DNA from: Clostridium sp. UBA701
GTDB lineage: Bacteria; Bacillota; Clostridia; Clostridiales; Clostridiaceae
Direction of reading: 5' to 3'
Length of the DNA stretch: 64,000 nt
Assembly: GCA_002298125.1 (NCBI GenBank)
Contig: DBMJ01000016.1
Coordinates: 1-64,000, forward strand
Made by a program: the position numbers and the translations under genes. The notes beneath the pieces were generated by a model. The model ran no database searches, was not told the DNA's origin, and saw only the letters and a program-made list of their open reading frames with translations. Positions 2,953 through 61,310 of this stretch are shown in pieces. The first letter of the stretch is position 1, and each line of letters opens with the position of its first letter.

Positions 2953-4641
2953 ATGATAAATGAAGTTAACACAGGCTGCAGCAGCTGCAGTGGATGTCAA
3001 AGTGCAATGTTTTGCTATCAATGTGAGCAGACCGTAAAGGGTACAGGATGTACAACCATGGGTGTATGCGGAAAGGACCCTGAGGTAGCAGCACTACAAG
3101 ACCTTATGATCCATGAACTAAAGGGCATTGGAGTACTAGGACAAAAACTAATTGAAAGAGGAGAGACATTAACAGAAAAATTACACAAGTTTGTAATGGA
3201 TGGATTATTCTCCACCTTGACCAATGTAAACTTTTCTCCAGCAAGATTTGTAGAGCTGATTCATGAAGCTGAGGAACATAAAACAGAGCTTATTTCAAAG
3301 TTTGGGGAAGAAAAGCTCCCAGAGGCTGCACTATATAGAGCACCAGAGAGCAGAAGTGAAATGGTTAGAGAGGGAAGAAGACTAGGTGTATTTAGCAATC
3401 CAGAGCTTAATGAGGATGTAAGAGCTACTAAGGAGCTTGCAATTTATGGCTTAAAGGGTGTTGCAGCATATGCTCATCATGCATATGTGTTAGGCAAGAG
3501 TGACCTTGAGGTTAATAATTTCTTCTATAAGGTATTGTCTGCAGCAGCAGTGGATGATAAGGACTTAAACTTCTGGGTTAACATGAGCCTTGAGCTTGGA
3601 CGAGTTAACTTCAGATGCATGGAGCTCTTAAGTGAAGCAAACAGCGGAACCTATGGAACTCCTACTCCAACCAATGTTGTGATTACTAAGAAAAAAGGTC
3701 CAGTAATCGTTGTATCAGGACATGACTTAAAGGATCTTAAGGAGCTTTTAGAGCAGACAGAGGGTAAGGGCATAAACATCTATACTCATGGAGAAATGCT
3801 TCCTGCTCATGCTTATCCAGAGCTTAAGAAATATCCTCATCTTGTAGGAAACTACGGCGGAGCTTGGCAGGATCAGCAGAAGGAATTTGACAGCCTCCCA
3901 GGCTGCATATTAATGACTACAAACTGCATTCAAAAGCCAAGAGAAAGCTACAAGGACAGGATTTTTACCTCAAGTGTAGTAGGCTGGCCAGATGTAGCTC
4001 ATATAGAGGATGCTAAGGAAGGTAAGGCTAAGGACTTTTCTGCTATCATAGAAAAAGCACTTTCATTAGGTGGATGGACTGAGGATGAAGAGGAAAAGAC
4101 TATTATGGTAGGCTTTGGTCACTCAGCAGTGCTTAGTCATGCAGATAAGATTATTGAGGGCGTAAAGAGCGGAGCAATAAAGCACTTCTTCCTAATTGGC
4201 GGCTGCGATGGAGCAAAACCAGGAAGAAATTACTATACTGATCTTGCAACCTCCTTGCCAAAGGATACTATAATCCTTACTCTTGCCTGTGGAAAGTACA
4301 GATTTAACAAGCTGGACTTTGGTAATATAGGAGAGCTTCCAAGATTATTAGATGTAGGTCAGTGTAATGACGCCTATTCTGCAGTAAAGATAGCTCTTGC
4401 ACTAGCAGAGGCCTTCAACTGCGGCGTAAACGACCTGCCCCTATCTCTTATCCTATCCTGGTATGAGCAGAAGGCAGTATGTATACTACTATCCTTACTG
4501 GCACTTGGAATAAAGAATATAAAGCTAGGGCCATCACTTCCAGCCTTTATATCTCCAAATGTACTAAAGGTATTGGTTGAAAACTTTGGAATAAAGCCAA
4601 TCTCCACTCCAGAAGAGGACATAAAAGAGATTTTAGGATAA
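2953..4641 (+). CDS. hcp: hydroxylamine reductase / hybrid-cluster protein Hcp, with an 18-aa Cys-rich N-terminal extension
   Basis: Canonical MFCYQCEQT motif begins at residue 19; the conserved C-terminal half is present; strong GGAGG RBS supports the upstream ATG at 2953. Confidence 0.9.
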   Translation: MINEVNTGCSSCSGCQSAMFCYQCEQTVKGTGCTTMGVCGKDPEVAALQDLMIHELKGIGVLGQKLIERGETLTEKLHKFVMDGLFSTLTNVNFSPARFVELIHEAEEHKTELISKFGEEKLPEAALYRAPESRSEMVREGRRLGVFSNPELNEDVRATKELAIYGLKGVAAYAHHAYVLGKSDLEVNNFFYKVLSAAAVDDKDLNFWVNMSLELGRVNFRCMELLSEANSGTYGTPTPTNVVITKKKGPVIVVSGHDLKDLKELLEQTEGKGINIYTHGEMLPAHAYPELKKYPHLVGNYGGAWQDQQKEFDSLPGCILMTTNCIQKPRESYKDRIFTSSVVGWPDVAHIEDAKEGKAKDFSAIIEKALSLGGWTEDEEEKTIMVGFGHSAVLSHADKIIEGVKSGAIKHFFLIGGCDGAKPGRNYYTDLATSLPKDTIILTLACGKYRFNKLDFGNIGELPRLLDVGQCNDAYSAVKIALALAEAFNCGVNDLPLSLILSWYEQKAVCILLSLLALGIKNIKLGPSLPAFISPNVLKVLVENFGIKPISTPEEDIKEILG

Positions 4642-11303: not shown

Positions 11304-12116
11304 GTGGAAATGAGAAGAAATTATATATTTGAGTTGATAAAATACAATCTTCAAATGCTATCCTTTAAAAGGTTTTTTATAATAACACTGCTATTTAATG
11401 GTATCATGGCGTTTATCAATTATGAAGCATTCAAAGGGGAAGGGCTAAAAAGTGCCTTGGATATACTTTTTGTCACTTTTGCAGGTCCAAGAGCGGATGA
11501 GGTATTTCTATATAAGAATATGGAGTGGTTTTTACTTCAGCTTATAATCATGCTTTTTACCGGAGATTTTTTATATAACCTTATACTTCGGAAAAGCTCC
11601 TTTTTGTTTGTAAGGACGAATAGGAAAAACCTATGGTTATCCTTGATGTTATCTCTTGGTATCATCCTTAGTTTATTTTTTATAGTTTCGTTCTTAGAGG
11701 TGCTTTTTATAGCTCTACTTAAGGCTCCTCTAAATATCACTCAGGGTATTTTTATGGAGAACCTTGAGAGATTTAATAATTTTCAAATCATATTTTGGAT
11801 GTGGTTTTTACTATTTCTGTCCTGTTATGCTATAATGGCTGTACATTTTTTATGCACTCTGTATTTTAGAAGCTTTCTACCTTCATTGATTGGAATAATA
11901 ATACTTCAGGTAATAACAATCTTTTATAAGGGACTAGATATAAAACTTATAAAGTGGCTTCCAGGAAATCAGGGAATCATTATTAGACACAGTTTGTTTC
12001 AAAATTATTCTGCCAGTTTTTCATTAAGCTTTTCTATAGCTTATAGCATAATTTTAATTGCCTTGGTGCTCTTTATAGGTATGAAAAAAATAGAGAGCAT
12101 GGATATCTATATATGA
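11304..12116 (+). CDS. polytopic membrane protein, ABC-2-type permease-like (paralogue 3 of 3)
   Basis: 270 aa, translationally coupled. Confidence 0.5.
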   Translation: MEMRRNYIFELIKYNLQMLSFKRFFIITLLFNGIMAFINYEAFKGEGLKSALDILFVTFAGPRADEVFLYKNMEWFLLQLIIMLFTGDFLYNLILRKSSFLFVRTNRKNLWLSLMLSLGIILSLFFIVSFLEVLFIALLKAPLNITQGIFMENLERFNNFQIIFWMWFLLFLSCYAIMAVHFLCTLYFRSFLPSLIGIIILQVITIFYKGLDIKLIKWLPGNQGIIIRHSLFQNYSASFSLSFSIAYSIILIALVLFIGMKKIESMDIYI

Positions 12117-12132
12117 TGGAGGGGTTAAATCA

Positions 12133-12768
12133 ATGGAAAATATAATAGCTGTAAAAAATTATAATAAAAGAATAGGAAGTCAAGTGGTGCTTAAGGATAT
12201 AAATATGCAGCTTGAAAAGGGAAAGATATATGGACTTAAGGGGAGAAATGGGTCTGGGAAAACTATGCTTTTAAGAGCTATGTGTGGACTCATATTCCCT
12301 GACAGTGGAGAGGTATGCATTAAGGGGAAACCTATTAGTATAAGAGATGTTATCCCTCCAAGCATTGGTGCAGTAATTGAAGCTCCAGGCTTTATACTGG
12401 AATATTCAGGCTATAGGAATTTGAAGCTATTGGCAAGTATAAAAAATACCATAGATAGCAAGCGTATTGAAGAGGCTATGGTGATGGTTGGGCTAGATCC
12501 TCATGATAAGAAAAGGGTTAAAGCATATTCCCTAGGCATGAAGCAGCGTTTAGGAATTGCCCAAGCAATAATGGAATACCCTGAGCTAGTTTTATTAGAC
12601 GAGCCAACCAATGCTCTAGATACTGATGGAGTGGAGATTTTAAGAGCATTGCTTTTGGATTTAAAGGGAAAGGGTGTTACCGTTGTAATTGCAAGCCACA
12701 ATCAGGAGGACTTAAATTTACTCTGTGATGAAGTGTTCTTAATTGAAAAGGGCTGTATAACTACTTGA
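12133..12768 (+). CDS. ABC transporter ATP-binding protein (short, 211 aa)
   Basis: Walker A GRNGSGKT, signature LSLGMKQRL, Walker B LVLLDEPTNALD, H-loop. Confidence 0.85.
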   Translation: MENIIAVKNYNKRIGSQVVLKDINMQLEKGKIYGLKGRNGSGKTMLLRAMCGLIFPDSGEVCIKGKPISIRDVIPPSIGAVIEAPGFILEYSGYRNLKLLASIKNTIDSKRIEEAMVMVGLDPHDKKRVKAYSLGMKQRLGIAQAIMEYPELVLLDEPTNALDTDGVEILRALLLDLKGKGVTVVIASHNQEDLNLLCDEVFLIEKGCITT

Positions 12769-18852: not shown

Positions 18853-18893
18853 AATCCCCTAGGATAGAAAATTTTGTTATCCTAGGGGATTTA
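18853..18893. terminator. bidirectional terminator (AATCCCCTAGGATAGaaaattttgtTATCCTAGGGGATT)
   Basis: 15-bp near-perfect stem between convergent genes. Confidence 0.65.
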
Positions 18894-19688
18894 CTATATT
18901 GTCTTCACAGCTTTAGTAGGACATTTCTCTGTGCAAGCCTTGCACTGAGTACATTTCTCGTAGTCCACAGCTGCAAGGTTGTCCTTTACATGTATGGCGT
19001 CATAGTCACAGCTTTTTTCACATATCCTGCAGGAAATGCAGCCTGCAGAGCAGCTCTCTCTCACAGCCTTTCCTATATCCTTGGAGTTACACTGCACTCT
19101 AACCTTCTTCTGAATAGGAACGGCCTCAATAAGGTTTCTAGGACATACCCTCATACAGGCACCACAGTTTACACACTTTTCTTCAACTATTCTTGCAATA
19201 CCATTTTCCAGTACTATAGCACCAAATTTGCATGCCTCATAGCAGCTTCCAAGACCAAAGCATCCATAACCGCAGCCCAAGGGATTTTCCTTCCACAGCT
19301 TTTCTGCTGAAATACAATCATTTATTCCACCATAATCAGCCTTGATTTTAGTATTGTCACAGCTGCCATTACATTTGACAAAGGCTATCATTTCCTCTTT
19401 TGCTTCTACCTTAACACCTAGAATATCTCCTATGGAGGAGGCTACGGAGGCACCGCCTACAGTACAGGCATCAGCTGCTGCACCTTCCTCTACTACTGCC
19501 CTGGCATAAGCGTCGCAGCCAGTATAACCGCAGCCGCCGCAATTTGCCCCGGGGAGCACTTCTCTTATACTTGTTATTTTTGGATCTACTTCTATTTCAA
19601 ATTTCTTGGAGGCATAGCCTAGCAATGTGCCAAAGACCATTCCAAGACCTCCAAGGGTCAAGGCTGAATATATAAAAGTCATCTGCAT
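18894..19688 (-). CDS. rnfB: Rnf electron-transport complex subunit B (polyferredoxin)
   Basis: 264 aa; N-terminal TM, multiple CxxCxxCxxxCP 4Fe-4S motifs; last gene of the rnf cluster. Confidence 0.85.
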   Translation of the reverse strand: MQMTFIYSALTLGGLGMVFGTLLGYASKKFEIEVDPKITSIREVLPGANCGGCGYTGCDAYARAVVEEGAAADACTVGGASVASSIGDILGVKVEAKEEMIAFVKCNGSCDNTKIKADYGGINDCISAEKLWKENPLGCGYGCFGLGSCYEACKFGAIVLENGIARIVEEKCVNCGACMRVCPRNLIEAVPIQKKVRVQCNSKDIGKAVRESCSAGCISCRICEKSCDYDAIHVKDNLAAVDYEKCTQCKACTEKCPTKAVKTI

Positions 19689-19702
19689 ATCTCACTCACC
19701 CC

Positions 19703-20281
19703 CTAATGTATAAGTCCCTGGAAGGACATAAATGCTATGGACATAAGCCCTGCAGTTACAAGGGAGATGGGAAGGCCTCTTAGAAATACTGGAATGCTTT
19801 CGTTGTTGTCAATTTTTTCTCTAATACCTGCCAGTAAAACTATTGCCAACATATATCCAAGTGCAGAGCCAACTCCATTAACTACGGATTCTAAAAAGTT
19901 GTAGTTTTGTTGAATATTGATAACGGTCATTCCCAGTACGGCACAGTTTGTAGTTATCAGCGGGAGGTAGATACCAAGAGCCTTATACAGAGAGGGGCTC
20001 TTCTTTTGTATTACCATCTCAACAAACTGCACCAGGGCGGCAATTACAAGTACAAAGGCTATAGTGGATAGATACTCTATGCCAAGAGGCTTTAGCAGCC
20101 AGTTATAGACCATATAGGACATGGTGGAGGCTAGAGTCATAACAAAGGTAACAGCCAAGCCCATGCCCACTGCTGCATTTAGTTTTTTGGAAATGCCAAG
20201 GAAAGAGCAGATACCCAAAAACTTTGTAAGGACAAAGTTGTTAATCAGCATAGCGCTTATAAATATCAATAGTATCTTCAA
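19703..20281 (-). CDS. rnfA: Rnf complex subunit A
   Basis: 192 aa polytopic; RnfA/NqrE family pattern. Confidence 0.9.
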   Translation of the reverse strand: MKILLIFISAMLINNFVLTKFLGICSFLGISKKLNAAVGMGLAVTFVMTLASTMSYMVYNWLLKPLGIEYLSTIAFVLVIAALVQFVEMVIQKKSPSLYKALGIYLPLITTNCAVLGMTVINIQQNYNFLESVVNGVGSALGYMLAIVLLAGIREKIDNNESIPVFLRGLPISLVTAGLMSIAFMSFQGLIH

Positions 20282-20304
20282 AATTTCACCTTCCTTCTCT
20301 CACA

Positions 20305-20973
20305 TTAAGCATTAGTGGCTTTGCTGCAGCCTACAGCGCATCTGCTGCAGTCATGCTCCACCAGAGTGCAATTATCTTTATTTCTTTTAAGCTTAACTGC
20401 ATTTAATATTGCCATCAATATACCCAGAGTAAAGAAGGCTCCTGGTGCTAGCACCATTATGGAGGCTGGTTTATAGGCCTCTGGCATTACAGCTATTTCA
20501 AAGATAGTTCCTGCTCCTAAAAGCTCTCTTATCACACCTAGTATAGCAAGGGAGCAAGTAAAGCCCAAGCCCATTCCAATGGCGTCAAAGAGAGAGGCTA
20601 TAACTCCGTTCTTTGATGCATAGGCCTCGGCTCTGCCAAGGATTATACAGTTAACCACTATTAGTGGGATGAAAATTCCAAGAGACTTATAAAGTGCAGG
20701 TACGTAGGCCTGCATAAGCATGTCTATTATGGTAACAAAGCTTGCAATAACTACTATATAGGCAGGTATTCTAATCTTTGAGGGTATTAGCTTTCTAAGC
20801 AGGGATATAGCTATGTTGGAAGCAATAAGTACCACTAAGGTGGCAGCTCCCATGCCAAAGGCATTTTTAGCAGAAGAGGTAACCGCAAGGGTTGGACACA
20901 TAGCTAGTACTTGAACAAAGATTGGATTTTCTGTGATGACTCCATTTTTTATTCTCTCAAATATAACGGACAT
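20305..20973 (-). CDS. rnfE: Rnf complex subunit E
   Basis: 222 aa polytopic RnfE/NqrD-like. Confidence 0.9.
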   Translation of the reverse strand: MSVIFERIKNGVITENPIFVQVLAMCPTLAVTSSAKNAFGMGAATLVVLIASNIAISLLRKLIPSKIRIPAYIVVIASFVTIIDMLMQAYVPALYKSLGIFIPLIVVNCIILGRAEAYASKNGVIASLFDAIGMGLGFTCSLAILGVIRELLGAGTIFEIAVMPEAYKPASIMVLAPGAFFTLGILMAILNAVKLKRNKDNCTLVEHDCSRCAVGCSKATNA

Positions 20974-20975
20974 GG

Positions 20976-21542
20976 CTATTTGCCTCCCTTCAGGTTTGTT
21001 TTGTAGAAGCTTATGGCTTCATTTACTCCGCTATTTACAGCTGTAGAGGACACTGTGGCTCCTGATACAGCCTCTATCTCACTGTCTGAAGAGGCAGGAA
21101 GCTTAACAAGCTTTAAAGCTGTCTTAATAGATTTATCCTTAAACTTATCTGTAAAGCTCTCCTTTTCTATTTTAGAGCCTACCCCAGGAGTTTCAGAGTG
21201 GGACAACACCTTTACGCCGCTTAGCTTATCATCACTGGTTATGCCCACTAGTAAACCAATATCGCCATGAAAGCCCTTAGTGGTAACCTTAATTAAATAC
21301 CCAGCGTGCTCCTCCCCCCTGTAGGCCTCATAGACCTCTTTTACATTACTTCCTTCAATAATAGAGACCGGGATTTCACGAACCTTATCTGCACCAGGCA
21401 TTATTATACTTATCTGTTCCTTTGAGAGCTTCCCGTTTTGTGCTATGACGTCTTTTGTATTCTCATAGGCAAAACCTAAAAGCAGTCCTGCAATAGCAGT
21501 AATAAGTGCCAATATTAAACCTAGCTTTATATTTTCCTTCAT
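20976..21542 (-). CDS. rnfG: Rnf complex subunit G (FMN-binding)
   Basis: 188 aa; N-terminal TM, FMN-binding motif region (..AVSGATVSS..). Confidence 0.85.
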   Translation of the reverse strand: MKENIKLGLILALITAIAGLLLGFAYENTKDVIAQNGKLSKEQISIIMPGADKVREIPVSIIEGSNVKEVYEAYRGEEHAGYLIKVTTKGFHGDIGLLVGITSDDKLSGVKVLSHSETPGVGSKIEKESFTDKFKDKSIKTALKLVKLPASSDSEIEAVSGATVSSTAVNSGVNEAISFYKTNLKGGK

Positions 21543-22520
21543 TTATATGGCCTCCTTTACTGAAGCATTAAAAGCTCTTCTGCTAAATAATTTATCTATG
21601 AGTGGCACAAATAGATTCATTACAATTATGGCGTAGTAAGCACCCTCTCCATTGTAACCGTACACCTTAAATACCACCGCTAGGCTTCCGCATAGGGCAC
21701 CAAAGAGGAGCTGACTTCCAAAGTGAGAAGGAGAAGAAGCAGGATCACTTGCCATAAATAATGCAGCCATAAATAATACACCGCTTAAGGTTCCTGTAAT
21801 AACATCTCCTGTGAACATGCCCTCCTTTCCTCCTATAAACCAGGTCATAAGAGCATAGGAGGCTATAAAGGACAGAGGAATTTTATAGCTTATTACTCTT
21901 CTTATTAGAAGATAAAGTCCACCTAAAAGCAGTGCTGCTACAGAGGCCTCTCCTATATTTTGAGCACTTTGATTCAAAAACAGCTTCCATACACTATCTA
22001 GTGTTAGTGCGGATTGTACAACGGCTTGGCTAGCACTTGAAACTGCCTCCGCAGCGCCGCTGGCGGCAGAAACTGCCTCAGCTGCACTTGCACCTCCAAC
22101 AGCATCTACAGCTGGCTTAATTAATACAGCAGTCCAAGAGGTCATTAAAAATACCTTAGCAGCAATGGCTGGATTCATAAAATTACTGCCCACTCCTCCA
22201 AAGAACTGCTTTACCACTAAGGTGGCAAAGATACTTCCTAGGGCTGGAATCCAAAGAGGTACATGAACCGGCAGTATAAGAGCCAGTATAAGGCCTGTAA
22301 CTACTGCACTTAGATCAGAAATGGTGATTGTCCTATGGCAAATTAGCTCCCAGATAAGCTCTGAAAGCACAGAGCCTGCCACAGATACTAGAATTATTAA
22401 AGCTGCCGGTACCTTATTTTGATAAATTCCAAAGGCCGCGGCAGGTAATAAAGCTATGAGCACGTCTCTCATTATGCTTTGAGTACTTCTTGCAGAAATG
22501 ATTTTTTTTGATTTACTCAT
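21543..22520 (-). CDS. rnfD: Rnf complex subunit D
   Basis: 325 aa RnfD/NqrB family; no ORF for RnfC lies upstream (a 467-bp AT-rich non-coding gap follows). Confidence 0.9.
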   Translation of the reverse strand: MSKSKKIISARSTQSIMRDVLIALLPAAAFGIYQNKVPAALIILVSVAGSVLSELIWELICHRTITISDLSAVVTGLILALILPVHVPLWIPALGSIFATLVVKQFFGGVGSNFMNPAIAAKVFLMTSWTAVLIKPAVDAVGGASAAEAVSAASGAAEAVSSASQAVVQSALTLDSVWKLFLNQSAQNIGEASVAALLLGGLYLLIRRVISYKIPLSFIASYALMTWFIGGKEGMFTGDVITGTLSGVLFMAALFMASDPASSPSHFGSQLLFGALCGSLAVVFKVYGYNGEGAYYAIIVMNLFVPLIDKLFSRRAFNASVKEAI

Positions 22521-22987
22521 TTTTTAATGCATACCCCCTTATTAATGTAAACAGCTGGATATAGGTTTATATTTACCATATAACATAACCTATTATAACA
22601 TATCATAAAATGGATAAGTATTCAAGAATAGTTTAGTTGTTCACAAAGGGAAGCTTTGTACACATTACGAAACTTTGTTAATTAAATAACATTATGTATT
22701 GGAATAAATTTATAAATATACAAAATAATAAATATTTATAAAATAATTACAATTCCTAAGATGACAACTAAGTGGTATTACCAATACTGTGAATAGAAAT
22801 ATTAAAAGTATATTCAAAGTGGAGCTGAATTTTTGTAACAAAGTTGTTTAAAAATATATTTTGATTTTTCACTCTTTTTTAAGCTTACTGTATAACATTG
22901 TTAAATAATATATTATTTTTAAAACAGTAATTAATTGAGGGCACCTCTAATATAATTAATGGAAAATATTATTAATGGGGGAGTATA

Positions 22988-24811
22988 ATGAAAAAAACAC
23001 TCAGTGTTTTACTTTCAGCAATGCTTTGCATATCCTTCTTTAGGGTGCTGCCTGAAAAGAAGGCCTATGCAGCAGTAGATGCACTGAAGGTTCAGGATAT
23101 GAAAACTGGAGGAGTTACAAAGGAGCTTATGGTAGAAAAGCTTTTAGGAAAAGATGTGGTGGCAAGCAATATACAATACAGAGGAGTACCTGTAGCAGCA
23201 GGACTGTTTCAGGGAGGAAAGAACATCATAGGCATAGAGGAAGGCATAATATTAAGTACAGGGAAGGCAGCAGATGTCATAGGCCCAAATGATACCCCCA
23301 GTAAGAGTGCAATGAGTGGTATGCCTGGTGACCCAGACCTAGACAAATTGGGTTTAGGTGGTCATACTTATGATGCTGCTGTGCTGGAGTTTGACTTTGT
23401 GCCTAAGGGAGACAGCGTATCCTTCCAATATGTTTTAGCATCAGAGGAATACAATGAATTTCTTAAATACAGTGATATAGTAGGTCTTTTTGTAAACGGC
23501 GCTAACACAGCATGGCTACCTACTAATCCACCAGTAGCAGTTAATATTTCAAATGTTAATCTTGGAAAGAACCCACAGTATTATATCAATAATGAAAACG
23601 GTAAATTAAACACTCAGATGGATGGCATGACAGTGGTATTATCAGCTCAAGCTGCTGTAAAACCAAATGAGATAAATCACCTTAAGCTTGCTGTTGCAGA
23701 CTATGGGGATGATAAGCTCGACACAAATGTATTTTTCAAGGCTGGAAGCCTTAACAGCAAACCAGTCACTCCAGGGCAATTTGCCTTTGGTGAACCACAA
23801 ATAAAGCCTGAGAACAATGGTCTTAGAGCCAAAGTAGAGGTAAAAAGAGCTAATGGTAGTGATGGTACTGCATCTGTACAGTGGACTGCATCTGGCAATG
23901 CTTCTGAAGACAGCACAAATACTCTTACCTTTGGAGATGGAGAAACAAGCAAAATTGTTGAACTTCCTATAATTCCAGGAGAGACAATTTATTTGCAGCT
24001 TGAAAATCCTACAGGTGGAGCCACTATTGATGAAGAACACAGTTATGTGGAAATACATGCACCTGTTACTGTGGTTAAGGTGGTGGCAGATAAAGAAAAT
24101 GGCAGCTATAAGGCAGGAGTGGAGATACCTATAACCGTATACTTTAATGGAGATATATTTTTACAAAGTGAGCTGCCAACTCTTATGAAGATACCTGAAA
24201 AAGAGCTCGGTGAACTTATTTTAAACTCTGGAGCAACGGTTAAGTGTACAGGTAAGGTAGGGAAAAATGCCATAAGCTTTTTATACACCATAAAGGAAGG
24301 GGAGAATGCCAAGTATCTAGATTATTTAAATATGGATTCCTTGGTTTTACAGGATAATTCACTATTTGATATTTCCTATAAAAATGTAATCCCAAAGCTC
24401 CCTTTACCAGGAAGTGTTAACTCTATTTCAGGGACTAAAAAGATAATTGTAGATACTACAGCACCAGTAATTATCCTAACAGGCGGCAGTGAAACAAAGA
24501 CCGTGCTAAGTAAGACCTTTACGGACCCTGGCTACAAGGTTACAGATAACTTCGATGAGAATTTAGGTTCCAAGGTAGTTGTTTCAGGTTCAGTAGATAC
24601 CAGTAAGAAGGGAAAATACCTATTAAAGTATAATGTGCTAGATGCTGCAGGAAACCCTGCCTTAGAGGTAATAAGAACTGTGGAGGTAGTAGATGCACTA
24701 GAACTTCCAAAGACAGGAGCTCAGATGGATTACAATGTACTCCTTTCAATAGGTATCCTTATAATGGCTGCAGGAGCAGTGACTCTTATATACAAAAAGA
24801 AAAATGAATAA
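22988..24811 (+). CDS. LPXTG-anchored cell-surface protein with choice-of-anchor-like N-terminal domain and Ig-like (DUF5011-type) domain
   Basis: 607 aa; signal peptide; C-terminal LPKTG + hydrophobic stretch + KKKNE; F.YVLASEEY motif; DUF5011-like TAPVI.L.G...TV..G..YTDPG segment. Confidence 0.75.
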   Translation: MKKTLSVLLSAMLCISFFRVLPEKKAYAAVDALKVQDMKTGGVTKELMVEKLLGKDVVASNIQYRGVPVAAGLFQGGKNIIGIEEGIILSTGKAADVIGPNDTPSKSAMSGMPGDPDLDKLGLGGHTYDAAVLEFDFVPKGDSVSFQYVLASEEYNEFLKYSDIVGLFVNGANTAWLPTNPPVAVNISNVNLGKNPQYYINNENGKLNTQMDGMTVVLSAQAAVKPNEINHLKLAVADYGDDKLDTNVFFKAGSLNSKPVTPGQFAFGEPQIKPENNGLRAKVEVKRANGSDGTASVQWTASGNASEDSTNTLTFGDGETSKIVELPIIPGETIYLQLENPTGGATIDEEHSYVEIHAPVTVVKVVADKENGSYKAGVEIPITVYFNGDIFLQSELPTLMKIPEKELGELILNSGATVKCTGKVGKNAISFLYTIKEGENAKYLDYLNMDSLVLQDNSLFDISYKNVIPKLPLPGSVNSISGTKKIIVDTTAPVIILTGGSETKTVLSKTFTDPGYKVTDNFDENLGSKVVVSGSVDTSKKGKYLLKYNVLDAAGNPALEVIRTVEVVDALELPKTGAQMDYNVLLSIGILIMAAGAVTLIYKKKNE

Positions 24812-58452: not shown

Positions 58453-61008
58453 TTACATTAAATGAGTTTTTATTACTTCCTCCTTGGAGGCTTGTTTTTC
58501 AATATTGTTTACTACCTTTACAGAGTCATTAGTGCTGCCAAGGAGAATTCCACCCACCAGCCTTCTGTTTTTTAAGAATAGCTTTTTATATTGAAGCTTT
58601 CCAGCGGTCTTATAGCCAAGCTCCTCAAAGCTTTCATCCTTTGCACACACATCTCCTGCAGAGAACAGATTGATATTTAGTGCATTAAACATTATGGAGG
58701 AAACAAAATCTGCAAATTCCTTTTCATCTCCTACGGCCGCTGCTCCTGCTACCTTGCCCATCTCTGTAGCTGCAGGCCAGTTTCCAAATACCCTTCCATT
58801 ATATTCAGCCACATCTCCGCAGGCATATATATTAGGTATATTGGTCTCCATTTTCTTATTGACTATTATTCCCCTATTTACTGCTATTCCTGCATTTTCT
58901 GCCAGGGCTTTATTAGGACGAATGCCCACAGATAAAAGCACCATATCTCCCTGAAGTACCTTTCCGCTCTTTAATCTTACTCCGCTTACAGAGTCTTCTC
59001 CAAGGATTTCTTCCACAGCCTCGTTAAGGTATATGTCTACACCACAGCTGTCTATGAAAGGCTTTGCCAGAGAAGAACCCTCATCATCAAGCTGCATAGG
59101 CAAAAGTCTAGGAGCAAGCTCCACTACAGAAACCTTAATACCAAGCTTTTTCATCTCCCAAGCTGCCTCTAAACCCAGCACTCCACCGCCAATTATTACT
59201 GCACTCTTGCTTTCCTCTAGTGCAGTCTTTATTTTAGTTGCATCCTCAAAGGTTCTAAGTACAAATACATTTTTGTGCTCTGCACCCTTTATAGGTGGAA
59301 CAAAGGCACTGCTGCCATTTGCCAAAATAAGCTTGTCATAGGATATCTCCATACCATTATTAAGCACTAAAAGCTTATTTTCTGGTTTTAGCTCTTTTAC
59401 AACAACTCCAAGGGTAAGAGTAATATTATTTTCACTATACCAGTTTTTGTTTACTAGATAGAAATCTCTTTCTGGAATTTCTGAGCTTAAATAATCAGAA
59501 AGCTGAGGCTTGTAGTAGGTAAGCTCACTCTCAGAGGAGATAATCTCTATATCTGCTGCAGAGTTTCTCTTTCTTATGGCATCTGCTGCATAAAAGCCTG
59601 CAGCACCATTACCTATTATTATAAACTTTTCTTTTTTGTCACTGTGGAAGCTTATTATTTCCTCAGATACCTCTACAAATTGGTCTGAGCCTGCACCACA
59701 TGCTGGACAAACCTCTGGAGGAACCTCTCCTTCTAATATAAGCCCGCATACTATGCATTTCCACTTCTTTTTAGGCTTTTTATCTGCCTTTTCTGAGCTC
59801 TTATTTAGTTTTAATAGCAGCTCCTCCCCAAAGCCTTTCCCAAAGCTTACACACTGCTTAAGCTCCTCATAAGAAGGCTTAAAGTTTATTTTTAAACCCG
59901 GTATTAGCTTCATTCTAAGCTCTTTTAGCCTATTAATAATATTATCCACAGCTTCTCCACTCCAGCCATAGGAACCAAAGGCTGAGCAAAGCTTATCACC
60001 ATGGACTATAGGGCTTAAGCTTATGAGTAAATCCATCACAGGTAAAAGAGCATCACTGTTTATGGTAGGAGAACCAAAAATAATGCCGTCAGCATTTAAC
60101 ATATCCCCTAGAATATCCTCTTTTTTCTCTTTAATAATATCGTAGAGGTGAATTTCAAAGGGGTGGACTTCTTTTAAGCCCTCTGCTATCTTCATGGCCA
60201 TGCTCTCTGTATAGCCATAGGCAGATACATAGGGGATTACTATTTTGGGTTCAGGGTTCTTTTCTAAGGGTTCACTCCACTGTCTGTAAAGCTCTACTAT
60301 CTTCCAGGGGTCCTGTCTTAAAATAGGTCCGTGACCAGGGCAGATTATTTCTATATCAAGGTTTTTTATCTTATCGTAAGCCCTTAATAGGTGAGGCTTA
60401 AAGGGAGATATTATCATGTCATAGTAATATCTAAGGGCAGTGTTATAATCCTCAATATTTGGAATGAGGTCATTATACATCTCCTCAAAGCAGTAGTGAC
60501 TGCCGAAGGAATCACAGGTTAATAGAAGCTTATCCTCCTCCACATAGGTGTAGATGGAATCTGGCCAATGTAAAAAGGGTGCATTGATAAACTTTAAGGT
60601 CTTATCACCAAGGGATAAGGTATCCCCATCTTTTACAGTAATGGCCTCAAAGCTTCTGTTGGCAATGGCTTTTAGAAATTGTATTGCCATGGCAGATCCC
60701 ACTACCTTAGCCTTTGGAGCTAGTTCTAGAAGCTTTGCCACGGAACCTGCATGGTCAGGCTCTGTATGGTCTACTACAATGTAGTCTATACTGCTTATAT
60801 CAATATCAAGGGATTGAAGCCTTTCTAGATATTCAGGGAAAAATTTTTCCTTTACGGTTTCAAAGATAGCAGTTTTTTGCGAACCCTTTACTACATAAGA
60901 ATTGTAGGTAGTACCAAAGGGTGTGTACATGATTATATCAAACACTCTCAGGTTAAAGTCCTGGGCCCCGACCCAATAAATATCCTTTTTAATCTCTAAG
61001 GATTTCAT
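58453..61008 (-). CDS. multidomain flavodiiron protein: metallo-beta-lactamase-like diiron + flavodoxin + rubredoxin + NAD(P)H:rubredoxin oxidoreductase (class-F-type FDP fusion)
   Basis: H.E.DH diiron motif ([11 protein letters not shown]), flavodoxin segment, rubredoxin CxxC...CPxC (CIVCG...CPACG), two Rossmann GxGxxG motifs; start set at third ATG (MKSLEIKK) with GGAGGAG RBS. Confidence 0.85.
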
Positions 61009-61310
61009 CATATCTCCTCCATACATATGTTAATAAATTATTAATAAATAACAATTGTCCGTTATTTTTATTATAATACAGCTTAGCTCATACTTCAATT
61101 CTTTAGTAGTATTACTATTAGCTCATAATTCAATTATTTAGTAGTATTACTATTAGCGCATAATTCAAATATTTATTAGTATTACTATATGTAAAATCAT
61201 CTTACCTTATATTTCCCGTTATAAAAGTAAAAAAATTCATACTACTTCACAATTTTAGTGTTATAATTTTACCATAATGCATAATTAAAACCCGCGGGGA
61301 GGAATTAACT

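Follow-up and report, generated by a model that had tools for sequence, protein, structure and literature searches.

An rnfDGEAB operon without rnfC in Clostridium sp. UBA701 and related clostridia

The first 64,000 nucleotides of contig DBMJ01000016.1 of Clostridium sp. UBA701 (assembly GCA_002298125.1, forward strand; this whole stretch is hereafter called the window) carry an operon for an Rnf electron-transfer complex, rnfDGEAB, in which no gene for RnfC, the subunit at the nicotinamide adenine dinucleotide (NAD+) end of the complex, is found. We propose that this operon encodes a functional Rnf-type complex composed of RnfD, G, E, A and B only, which quite probably works without RnfC. RnfD of this operon has lost the N-terminal motif that contacts RnfC, the same five-gene layout recurs in four other loci without rnfC (called C-less here), with purifying selection in the pairs close enough to measure, and the RnfC proteins of the closest sister operons have themselves lost the site for NADH and flavin mononucleotide (FMN).

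Five rnf genes and no rnfC in the window

The genes rnfD, G, E, A and B follow one another without interruption on the minus strand, in agreement with the calls of a preliminary description of this DNA, and each of the five open reading frames passes the curated NCBIfam/Pfam threshold for its own subunit. The genes and the two parts of RnfD discussed below are as follows.

21543-22520, minus strand: rnfD, 325 residues; membrane subunit and first gene of the operon (PF03116, 289 bits; TIGR01946, 209.3 bits)
22473-22520, minus strand: N-terminal cytoplasmic arm of RnfD, residues 1-16, MSKSKKIISARSTQSI; without the conserved S-S-P-H-x-R
22029-22106, minus strand: outer loop of RnfD, residues 139-164; flavin-attachment-like DAVGGAS, EAVSAAS and EAVSSAS
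20976-21542, minus strand: rnfG, 188 residues; membrane-anchored FMN-binding subunit of the outer face (TIGR01947, 133.6 bits; PF04205)
20305-20973, minus strand: rnfE, 222 residues; cysteine-rich C-terminal tail (TIGR01948, 276.6 bits; PF02508)
19703-20281, minus strand: rnfA, 192 residues, TTG start (TIGR01943, 281.8 bits; PF02508)
18894-19688, minus strand: rnfB, 264 residues; ferredoxin-side polyferredoxin of canonical build (PF04060 and Fer4; TIGR01944, 114.7 bits, cut-off 68.7)

RnfD stands only just above the TIGR01946 cut-off (207.05 bits), and PF03116 is its sole domain, covering residues 2-317 of 325. RnfG contains one FMN_bind domain and one flavin-attachment motif, EAVSGAT. RnfB has 25 cysteines, against 26 in the two canonical relatives counted; as read from its sequence, this ferredoxin-side module is fully canonical. 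The TAA of rnfD is followed directly by the ATG of rnfG, the remaining gaps measure 2, 23 and 14 nucleotides, and the Shine-Dalgarno sequence of each downstream gene sits within the preceding gene; these tight junctions are compatible with translational coupling. The arrangement is not a misassembly, since the Joint Genome Institute (JGI) contig Ga0243509_100003 (794 kb) and an independent Logan assembly contain an identical RnfD and the same rnfDGEAB layout.

The absence of rnfC, pointed out in the preliminary description, was borne out within the window: tblastn with seven RnfC proteins (canonical, degenerate and short) detected no RnfC, intact or decayed, in these 64 kb. The same searches revealed no RnfC in the flanks of the other C-less loci described below, and no rnfC pseudogene in the regions upstream of them. 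Apart from one match at 59.5 kb, the only hits were ferredoxin-type cysteine motifs within rnfB. The 59.5-kb match, weak and RnfC-like, was rejected as an RnfC candidate, as it is due to the Rossmann motif of a flavodiiron-rubredoxin reductase fusion. This 857-residue protein (58453-61026, minus strand) joins a flavodiiron core (beta-lactamase-like and flavodoxin domains), a rubredoxin and an NAD(P)H:rubredoxin reductase into a one-chain O2/NO-detoxifying enzyme. Pfam scans of the larger remaining open reading frames of the window returned ordinary chromosomal genes, with no RnfC and no ApbE. A search with the short form of RnfC listed nothing from the 793,766-bp or 691,785-bp contigs, a weak negative given its limited sensitivity.

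Some features of the operon stand apart from the question of RnfC. The start of rnfD is preceded by an AAGGGGG Shine-Dalgarno sequence 13 nucleotides ahead of the ATG (22500-22540, minus strand), which is rather distant, and a mini open reading frame of two codons (ATG CAT TAA) lies between the two. Met17 serves as the RnfD start in some gene calls (309-residue form, P0001); the S-P-H arm motif is absent from either start. The C-terminal tail of RnfE (about 20314-20370, minus strand), NCTLVEHDCSRCAVGCSK, has cysteines with the spacing C-x7-C-x2-C-x3-C. This tail is common to the window and the short-RnfC operons, occurs in a related form in the C. thermarum type and in C. paraputrificum, and is lost from the other window-type C-less loci L007, L012, L011 and L013.

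Loss of the RnfC-buried arm motif of RnfD

In the structure of the Clostridium tetanomorphum complex (7ZC6), the 20 N-terminal residues of RnfD are wholly buried in RnfC, while the C-terminal arm of RnfD lies on the RnfC surface, which explains the retention of RnfC at the membrane (PMC9588780). A HMMER alignment places residues 3-8 of the window RnfD (KSKKII) opposite SSPHIR of 7ZC6_D. Of 120 RnfD homologues, 109 have the S-S-P-H-x-R motif; the 11 proteins without it comprise nine members of the window clade (P0001-P0009), a single truncated gene call, and P0017, from an operon outside the loci inspected. Across the scorable loci, motif and RnfC are both present in 70 (including a PMPH variant in L017) and both absent in 7, with no discordant case. 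The arm is likewise absent from all ten RnfD proteins of a second C-less type, named after C. thermarum and described below. The arm motif is still present where RnfC is degenerate or short, indicating that it tracks an RnfC-like partner and not NAD+ chemistry. The loss of this motif is our main argument that rnfC would not be supplied from elsewhere in the genome.

The C-less layout recurs and is kept by selection

The closest homologues of the window RnfD form a small group (58-64% identity), and the four whose loci were inspected belong to rnfDGEAB operons without rnfC. L007 and L012 adjoin an amino-acid ATP-binding cassette transporter, and L011 and L013 adjoin prkA, DUF444 and spoVR, so that, with the window, the C-less layout is found in three different neighbourhoods. 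Only the five rnf genes are common to the window, L007/L012 and L011/L013, and no conserved neighbour could be picked out as a substitute for RnfC. Between the window and these four loci, identity amounts to 79-84% for RnfA and 62-64% for RnfD, the fastest-evolving subunit. All five open reading frames are intact across five divergent C-less loci, and the ratio of non-synonymous to synonymous substitution rates (dN/dS) is 0.01-0.13 for all five genes in two close C-less pairs, the synonymous rate being saturated in deeper comparisons. The low dN/dS in the close pairs, together with the conservation of all 25 RnfB cysteines, demonstrates that the operon is kept by selection and is no remnant.

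As a background, we used 80 loci from a metagenome scan with the clade alignment, in which the matches listed were canonical RnfD proteins of 37-46% identity and did not include the window's own contig. Among these matches, rnfC lies directly upstream of rnfD in 68 of the 70 informative unrelated loci, and the C-less layout is therefore rare. A species-genome scan with RnfD, which needs exact words of 8 residues and missed closer relatives, returned four canonical relatives of 36-37% identity. L018, placed near the base of the clade, was left unscored, its contig ending 136 nucleotides upstream of rnfD.

A second C-less type is represented by the background loci L077 and L096 and by the cultured species C. 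thermarum (L100, GCA_010367625.1). RnfD of this type has 274 residues, starts at the first helix (M-[LI]-DV) with the arm gone, contains no flavin-attachment motif, and has Glu in place of D248. The C-terminal tail of its RnfG bears 2-4 tandem D-x-T-S-G-A-[ST] motifs; in C. thermarum this tail, ETDGTSGASESDATSGASGSDATSGASEAGASDGTSGASE, has four tandem D-[GA]-T-S-G-A-S motifs. In this species the rnfDGEAB genes follow directly, on the same strand, after gcvT-gcvH-gcvPA-gcvPB and a dihydrolipoamide-dehydrogenase-like gene (L100, 3806-13683).

Sister operons encode RnfC proteins without the NADH/FMN site

Two loci, L009 (Clostridium sp. MSJ-4) and L014, have an RnfC-like gene of 349-350 residues. 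An RnfC with an NADH/FMN site is made up of RnfC_N, Complex1_51K, SLBB and two 4Fe-4S motifs. These short proteins lack the RnfC_N (N-terminal barrel-sandwich) domain, and the motifs GMGGAGFP and NGAECEP are replaced by EINSLK-DS and NALDNDP, respectively. They match Complex1_51K at 24.7 and 30.6 bits, under the 31.2-bit cut-off, as compared to 140-192 bits for canonical RnfC. Both 4Fe-4S motifs (CxxCxxCxxxCP) are kept, and a dN/dS of about 0.14 indicates purifying selection, with the synonymous rate saturated. Degenerate RnfC proteins are also encoded directly upstream of rnfDGEAB in two further species: that of C. gasigenes (340 residues) has no Complex1_51K match, and that of C. paraputrificum (387 residues) retains RnfC_N, again with no Complex1_51K match. 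The C. paraputrificum form was found in more than 1,200 index blocks. The nearest locus of known state outside the clade, L019, has a full RnfC of 445 residues.

In a C. paraputrificum-type contig (L016), a gene for the S-component of a riboflavin transporter of the energy-coupling factor type lies immediately downstream of rnfB (11917-12468), and RnfG has a second flavin-attachment-like motif at its extreme C-terminus (EVDSTTSATQ).

A neighbour-joining tree of concatenated RnfA, E, B and G (833 columns, 200 bootstraps) recovers the whole reduced-RnfC clade with 100% support. Within it, the window-type C-less operons (100%) join the short-RnfC group (98%), while the thermarum-type C-less operons (100%) join C. 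paraputrificum and C. gasigenes (70%). RnfD relatives from C. septicum and C. fallax that appeared in the same search were not placed in this clade. Since the window-type and thermarum-type operons form separate groups, we conclude that rnfC was completely lost twice, independently. The simplest history would be a single loss of the NADH/FMN module followed by two losses of the whole gene. The ancestor of the window operon was probably not an NAD+ reductase, because the closest sister RnfC is already without the NADH/FMN site and is under selection in that form.

Flavin-attachment-like motifs in the outer loop of RnfD

In canonical RnfD, the outer loop contains one D-x-x-[ST]-x-A-T site. In the window RnfD the predicted flavin-attachment site reads DAVGGAS, with Ser for the usual Thr, and is followed by an insert containing EAVSAAS and EAVSSAS, which resemble the EAVSGAT of RnfG itself. 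RnfD proteins of the window clade contain 2-4 such copies in an Ala/Ser-rich insert. Among 108 more distant RnfD homologues, only 3 have two copies, one of them being L019.

The window RnfD keeps N124, E185 and D248 (7ZC6 numbering). N90, a proposed Na+-path residue in 7ZC6 (PMC9588780), is replaced by Ile in the C-less operons, the window included, and by Val in the short-RnfC operons. The best PDB sequence match of the protein is 7ZC6_D (E=9e-61). Its AlphaFold2 model has a mean predicted local distance difference test score (pLDDT) of 83.4 and a template-modelling score (TM-score) of 0.76-0.81 to 9ERI_D and 7ZC6_D; confidence is low only at residues 1-6 and at about 131-170, the latter segment spanning the flavin-attachment motifs.

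A promoter common to C-less and short-rnfC operons

The following elements surround the operon.

22521-22987, no strand: intergenic region of 467 bp, 22.5% GC, between rnfD and a divergent LPXTG gene
22597-22647, minus strand: rnf promoter, with box TTTGTGAA from 22647, -35 element TTGAAT at 22620-22625 and TG-extended -10 element TATGTT at 22597-22602
22988-24811, plus strand: gene for an LPXTG-anchored 'choice-of-anchor L' surface protein, divergent from rnfD
18854-18890, minus strand: hairpin ATCCCCTAGGATA-(11 nucleotides)-TATCCTAGGGGAT, directly after the rnfB stop, read from the sequence

The 467-bp spacer had been described as a non-coding leader. It is indeed non-coding, with no stop-free stretch longer than 45 codons; tblastn detected no rnfC remnant in it, and Rfam gave nothing for it at E<=1, hence no known riboswitch or RNA. 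It is not a leader: as the conserved rnf promoter sits near rnfD, about 75-105 nucleotides upstream of the ATG, the spacer represents a divergent promoter region. The composite promoter pattern matches once in the window, with 0.03 matches expected by chance, a post hoc figure since the pattern was partly derived from the window sequence. The promoter is found at the equivalent position before rnfD in the C-less loci L007/L008, L012 and L013, and before the short rnfC in L009/L010 and L014, with only 2 matches elsewhere among 99 loci. Thus the C-less operons appear to use the very promoter from which rnfC-DGEAB is transcribed in the sister group, which fits a deletion of rnfC in place. We favour this derivation, in which the old promoter would have been left directly before rnfD.

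The box, TTTGT[GT]AA, stands about 14 nucleotides upstream of the -35 element (22629-22647, minus strand, in the window; 7883-7929 in L007, 7891-7937 in L012, 7886-7932 in L013, 6836-6883 in L009 and 6831-6878 in L014). Its left half corresponds to a clostridial Rex half-site (consensus TTGTTAANNNNTTAACAA) and its right half is degenerate; a full Rex operator was rejected, as only the left half-site fits. Possibly the box is a regulatory site that has persisted on an operon which itself may have ceased to handle NAD(H).

The hairpin past rnfB is likely a two-way terminator common to the rnf operon and the convergent gene; a simple terminator scan did not report it. The LPXTG gene is not part of the rnf system: in a 98%-identical strain (Logan SRR31637312, locus L002) a block of 1,795 bp (window 22974-24768) is absent, which removes nearly the whole gene and reveals a presence/absence polymorphism. 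A gene for a hybrid-cluster (prismane) protein lies at 2953-4641 on the plus strand, and the other redox and stress genes of the window have no conserved link to the rnf operon.

Discussion

Comparison with known complexes

With the canonical clostridial Rnf, which translocates Na+ or H+ (7ZC6 from C. tetanomorphum, 9ERI from Acetobacterium woodii), the window operon shares the order of D, G, E, A and B, the Fe-S cysteine motifs of RnfB, the covalent-FMN motif of RnfG, and the RnfD fold with N124, E185 and D248. It differs by the lack of RnfC, hence of the NADH/FMN site and of the RnfC 4Fe-4S pair, and by an RnfD that has no arm motif, has Ser as the predicted flavin-attachment residue plus two extra motifs, and has Ile in place of N90. 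By every subunit test applied to its sequence, the operon is an Rnf core that fails the RnfC and RnfC-anchor features.

The membrane core is homologous to that of the Na+-translocating NADH:quinone oxidoreductase (Na+-NQR), with the pairs NqrB/RnfD, NqrC/RnfG, NqrD/RnfE and NqrE/RnfA. By contrast, the input of the window operon is RnfB instead of NqrF, no NqrA and no NqrF were found, and the Nqr NCBIfam equivalog models score far under their cut-offs (for example, 121 versus 349.9 bits for NqrB). We know of no quinone link for the window operon, unlike for Na+-NQR. NqrA, the counterpart of RnfC in Na+-NQR, is likewise a subunit that lost its redox cofactors, with the output shifted to another place (PMC9588780, PMC12174285).

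The concept of a partial Nqr/Rnf system that retains one of the two transmembrane electron paths is shared with the two-subunit NQR/RNF-like systems, for which one-way transfer to outer flavins was proposed (Meheust et al. 2021, eLife, PMC8238504). These combine an NqrB/RnfD fused to an NqrF-type PF00175 NAD-binding domain with an RnfG-like subunit and use NAD(P)H as donor, whereas the window operon has RnfB, A and E, no PF00175, and a presumed ferredoxin donor. Multi-flavinylated RnfG proteins of RNF clusters, proposed to provide a second path to extracytosolic acceptors (Meheust et al. 2021, PMC8238504), resemble the window complex in their extra outer-face flavin sites, which in the window are predicted only. 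In the window, however, the extra sites are short tandem motifs in the RnfD loop, RnfG is single-site, and RnfC is missing.

The closest systems are the operons of C. paraputrificum, C. gasigenes, Clostridium sp. MSJ-4 and C. thermarum, which belong to the clade of the window and are known from database annotations only. They follow the same trend of NAD+ module loss and outer flavin motif gain; the window promoter recurs in this group of sister operons solely in those of MSJ-4 and L014. C. paraputrificum, C. gasigenes and MSJ-4 differ from the window by an Fe-S-only RnfC of 340-387 residues and by the RnfD arm; C. thermarum differs in that it lost rnfC independently, that the RnfD FMN site is gone along with the arm, and that the extra motifs are on the RnfG tail. 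We found no paper on C-less or NADH-site-less clostridial Rnf operons; a paper on ANME-3 archaea that mentions RnfC, considered in this context, concerns domain variation and not RnfC loss.

A possible outward electron path and its alternatives

In the proposed five-subunit complex, reduced ferredoxin would deliver electrons to the canonical RnfB, from which they would cross the membrane via RnfA/E to the FMN covalently bound to RnfG at the outer face, and from there reach one or more FMNs on the enlarged outer loop of RnfD. Without RnfC there would be no electron return to NAD+, leaving a one-way path from ferredoxin to the outside with an acceptor most likely beyond the cytoplasm. A one-way outward path to outer flavins was proposed for partial Nqr/Rnf systems and for multi-flavinylated RnfG (PMC8238504, PMC10979944). 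Here, this path is the best supported because outer flavin motifs arose convergently in both C-less lineages and the RnfD redox path is dismantled in the thermarum type; we nevertheless hold an extracytosolic output to be a tentative assignment. In one of its two readings, the preliminary description had suggested a different electron-input module. This does not fit the operon, in which the input RnfB is canonical and the missing part is the NAD+ end, the output in the ferredoxin-to-NAD+ direction.

Several observations weigh against this proposal. No acceptor was identified, neither an ApbE gene nor an extracellular reductase lies near the rnf operon, and no neighbour gene is conserved between the C-less loci. 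The search for rnfC covered 64 kb, whereas the contig measures at least 794 kb, and rnfC or an unrelated gene in its stead may lie elsewhere. Only two independent losses underlie the 7 C-less loci, which makes the correlation between loss of rnfC and loss of the arm motif phylogenetically shallow. The duplication of the flavin motif is enriched in the clade and is not exclusive to C-less operons, since L019, with its full RnfC, has two copies; moreover, the extra RnfD motifs sit in an Ala/Ser-rich low-complexity stretch, and flavin attachment to them is predicted. Finally, D248, E185 and N124, which belong to the inward riboflavin/Na+ path, are kept, and a return path to the cytoplasm could still run.

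For the window type, the retention of these three residues calls for serious consideration of another acceptor, inward or within the membrane, at the riboflavin site of RnfD. Electrons would then pass from the RnfD FMN to riboflavin and on to a quinone or a non-homologous soluble partner at the cytoplasmic face, as in Na+-NQR; besides these residues, the purifying selection on rnfD in the C-less pairs speaks for this route, and the decay of the sister RnfC mirrors the history from RnfC to NqrA (PMC9588780, PMC12174285). However, no partner gene is conserved near any C-less locus, and in the thermarum type, without the RnfD FMN site and with Glu for D248, the RnfD path looks dismantled. A further point against this route is that quinone synthesis is not known from Clostridium sensu stricto, and overall we consider the route rather unlikely. 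Whether the operon is split or a C-less variant had been left undecided in the preliminary description. If split, a canonical rnfC elsewhere, alone or in a second rnfCDGEAB, would complete an ordinary ferredoxin:NAD+ oxidoreductase, in keeping with a canonical RnfB, with an RnfD that keeps its predicted FMN site and the three residues above, and with the fact that most of the genome lies outside the search (64 kb of the 794-kb contig). Yet the RnfC-buried arm motif is gone from every C-less locus and kept wherever an RnfC-like gene occurs, the closest sister RnfC, under selection (dN/dS about 0.14), is already without its NADH/FMN site, and the search with the short form, of limited sensitivity, brought up no related RnfC from the 794-kb or 692-kb contigs. 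With rnfC sought in the 64 kb of the window, the comparative evidence favours the C-less variant, and a split operon appears improbable.

That the operon is a decaying, non-functional remnant of rnfCDGEAB, or that an assembly error dropped rnfC, is very hard to reconcile with the data. An RnfD barely above the TIGR01946 cut-off (209.3 versus 207.05) and evolving fastest of the subunits would agree with decay, but five divergent C-less loci all have the five open reading frames intact, dN/dS is 0.01-0.13 in close pairs, the 25 RnfB cysteines are kept, the promoter is conserved, and the JGI and Logan assemblies agree.

Implications for clostridial energy metabolism

In genome annotation and metabolic models, Rnf is treated as a ferredoxin:NAD+ oxidoreductase, and PGAP and IMG annotate these rnf subunits accordingly, as RnfABCDGE-type or ferredoxin:NAD+ oxidoreductase. 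Our results suggest that the role of Rnf is probably annotated wrongly throughout a clade that is cultured and in part gut-associated. The question is directly testable, as cultured carriers exist for both the C-less state (C. thermarum) and the degenerate RnfC (C. paraputrificum). If the clade lacks the NAD+ site or subunit, the inferred balances of redox and energy would be wrong for its members, among them C. paraputrificum, C. gasigenes, Clostridium sp. MSJ-4 and C. thermarum. The five-subunit complex would then offer a natural half-Rnf for the study of the outward electron path and of ion coupling, as well as an independent replay of the RnfC-to-NqrA cofactor loss behind Na+-NQR. It could also constitute a ferredoxin-fed route of extracellular electron transfer. 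On this speculative but conceivable view, RnfDGEAB would be an unrecognised class of Gram-positive electron exporter that shed its NAD+ module, arrayed a string of covalent flavins on its outer face (on the RnfD loop, or on the RnfG tail in C. thermarum), and passes ferredoxin electrons to extracellular or cell-wall acceptors, having arisen at least twice in a clade that includes the gut species C. paraputrificum.

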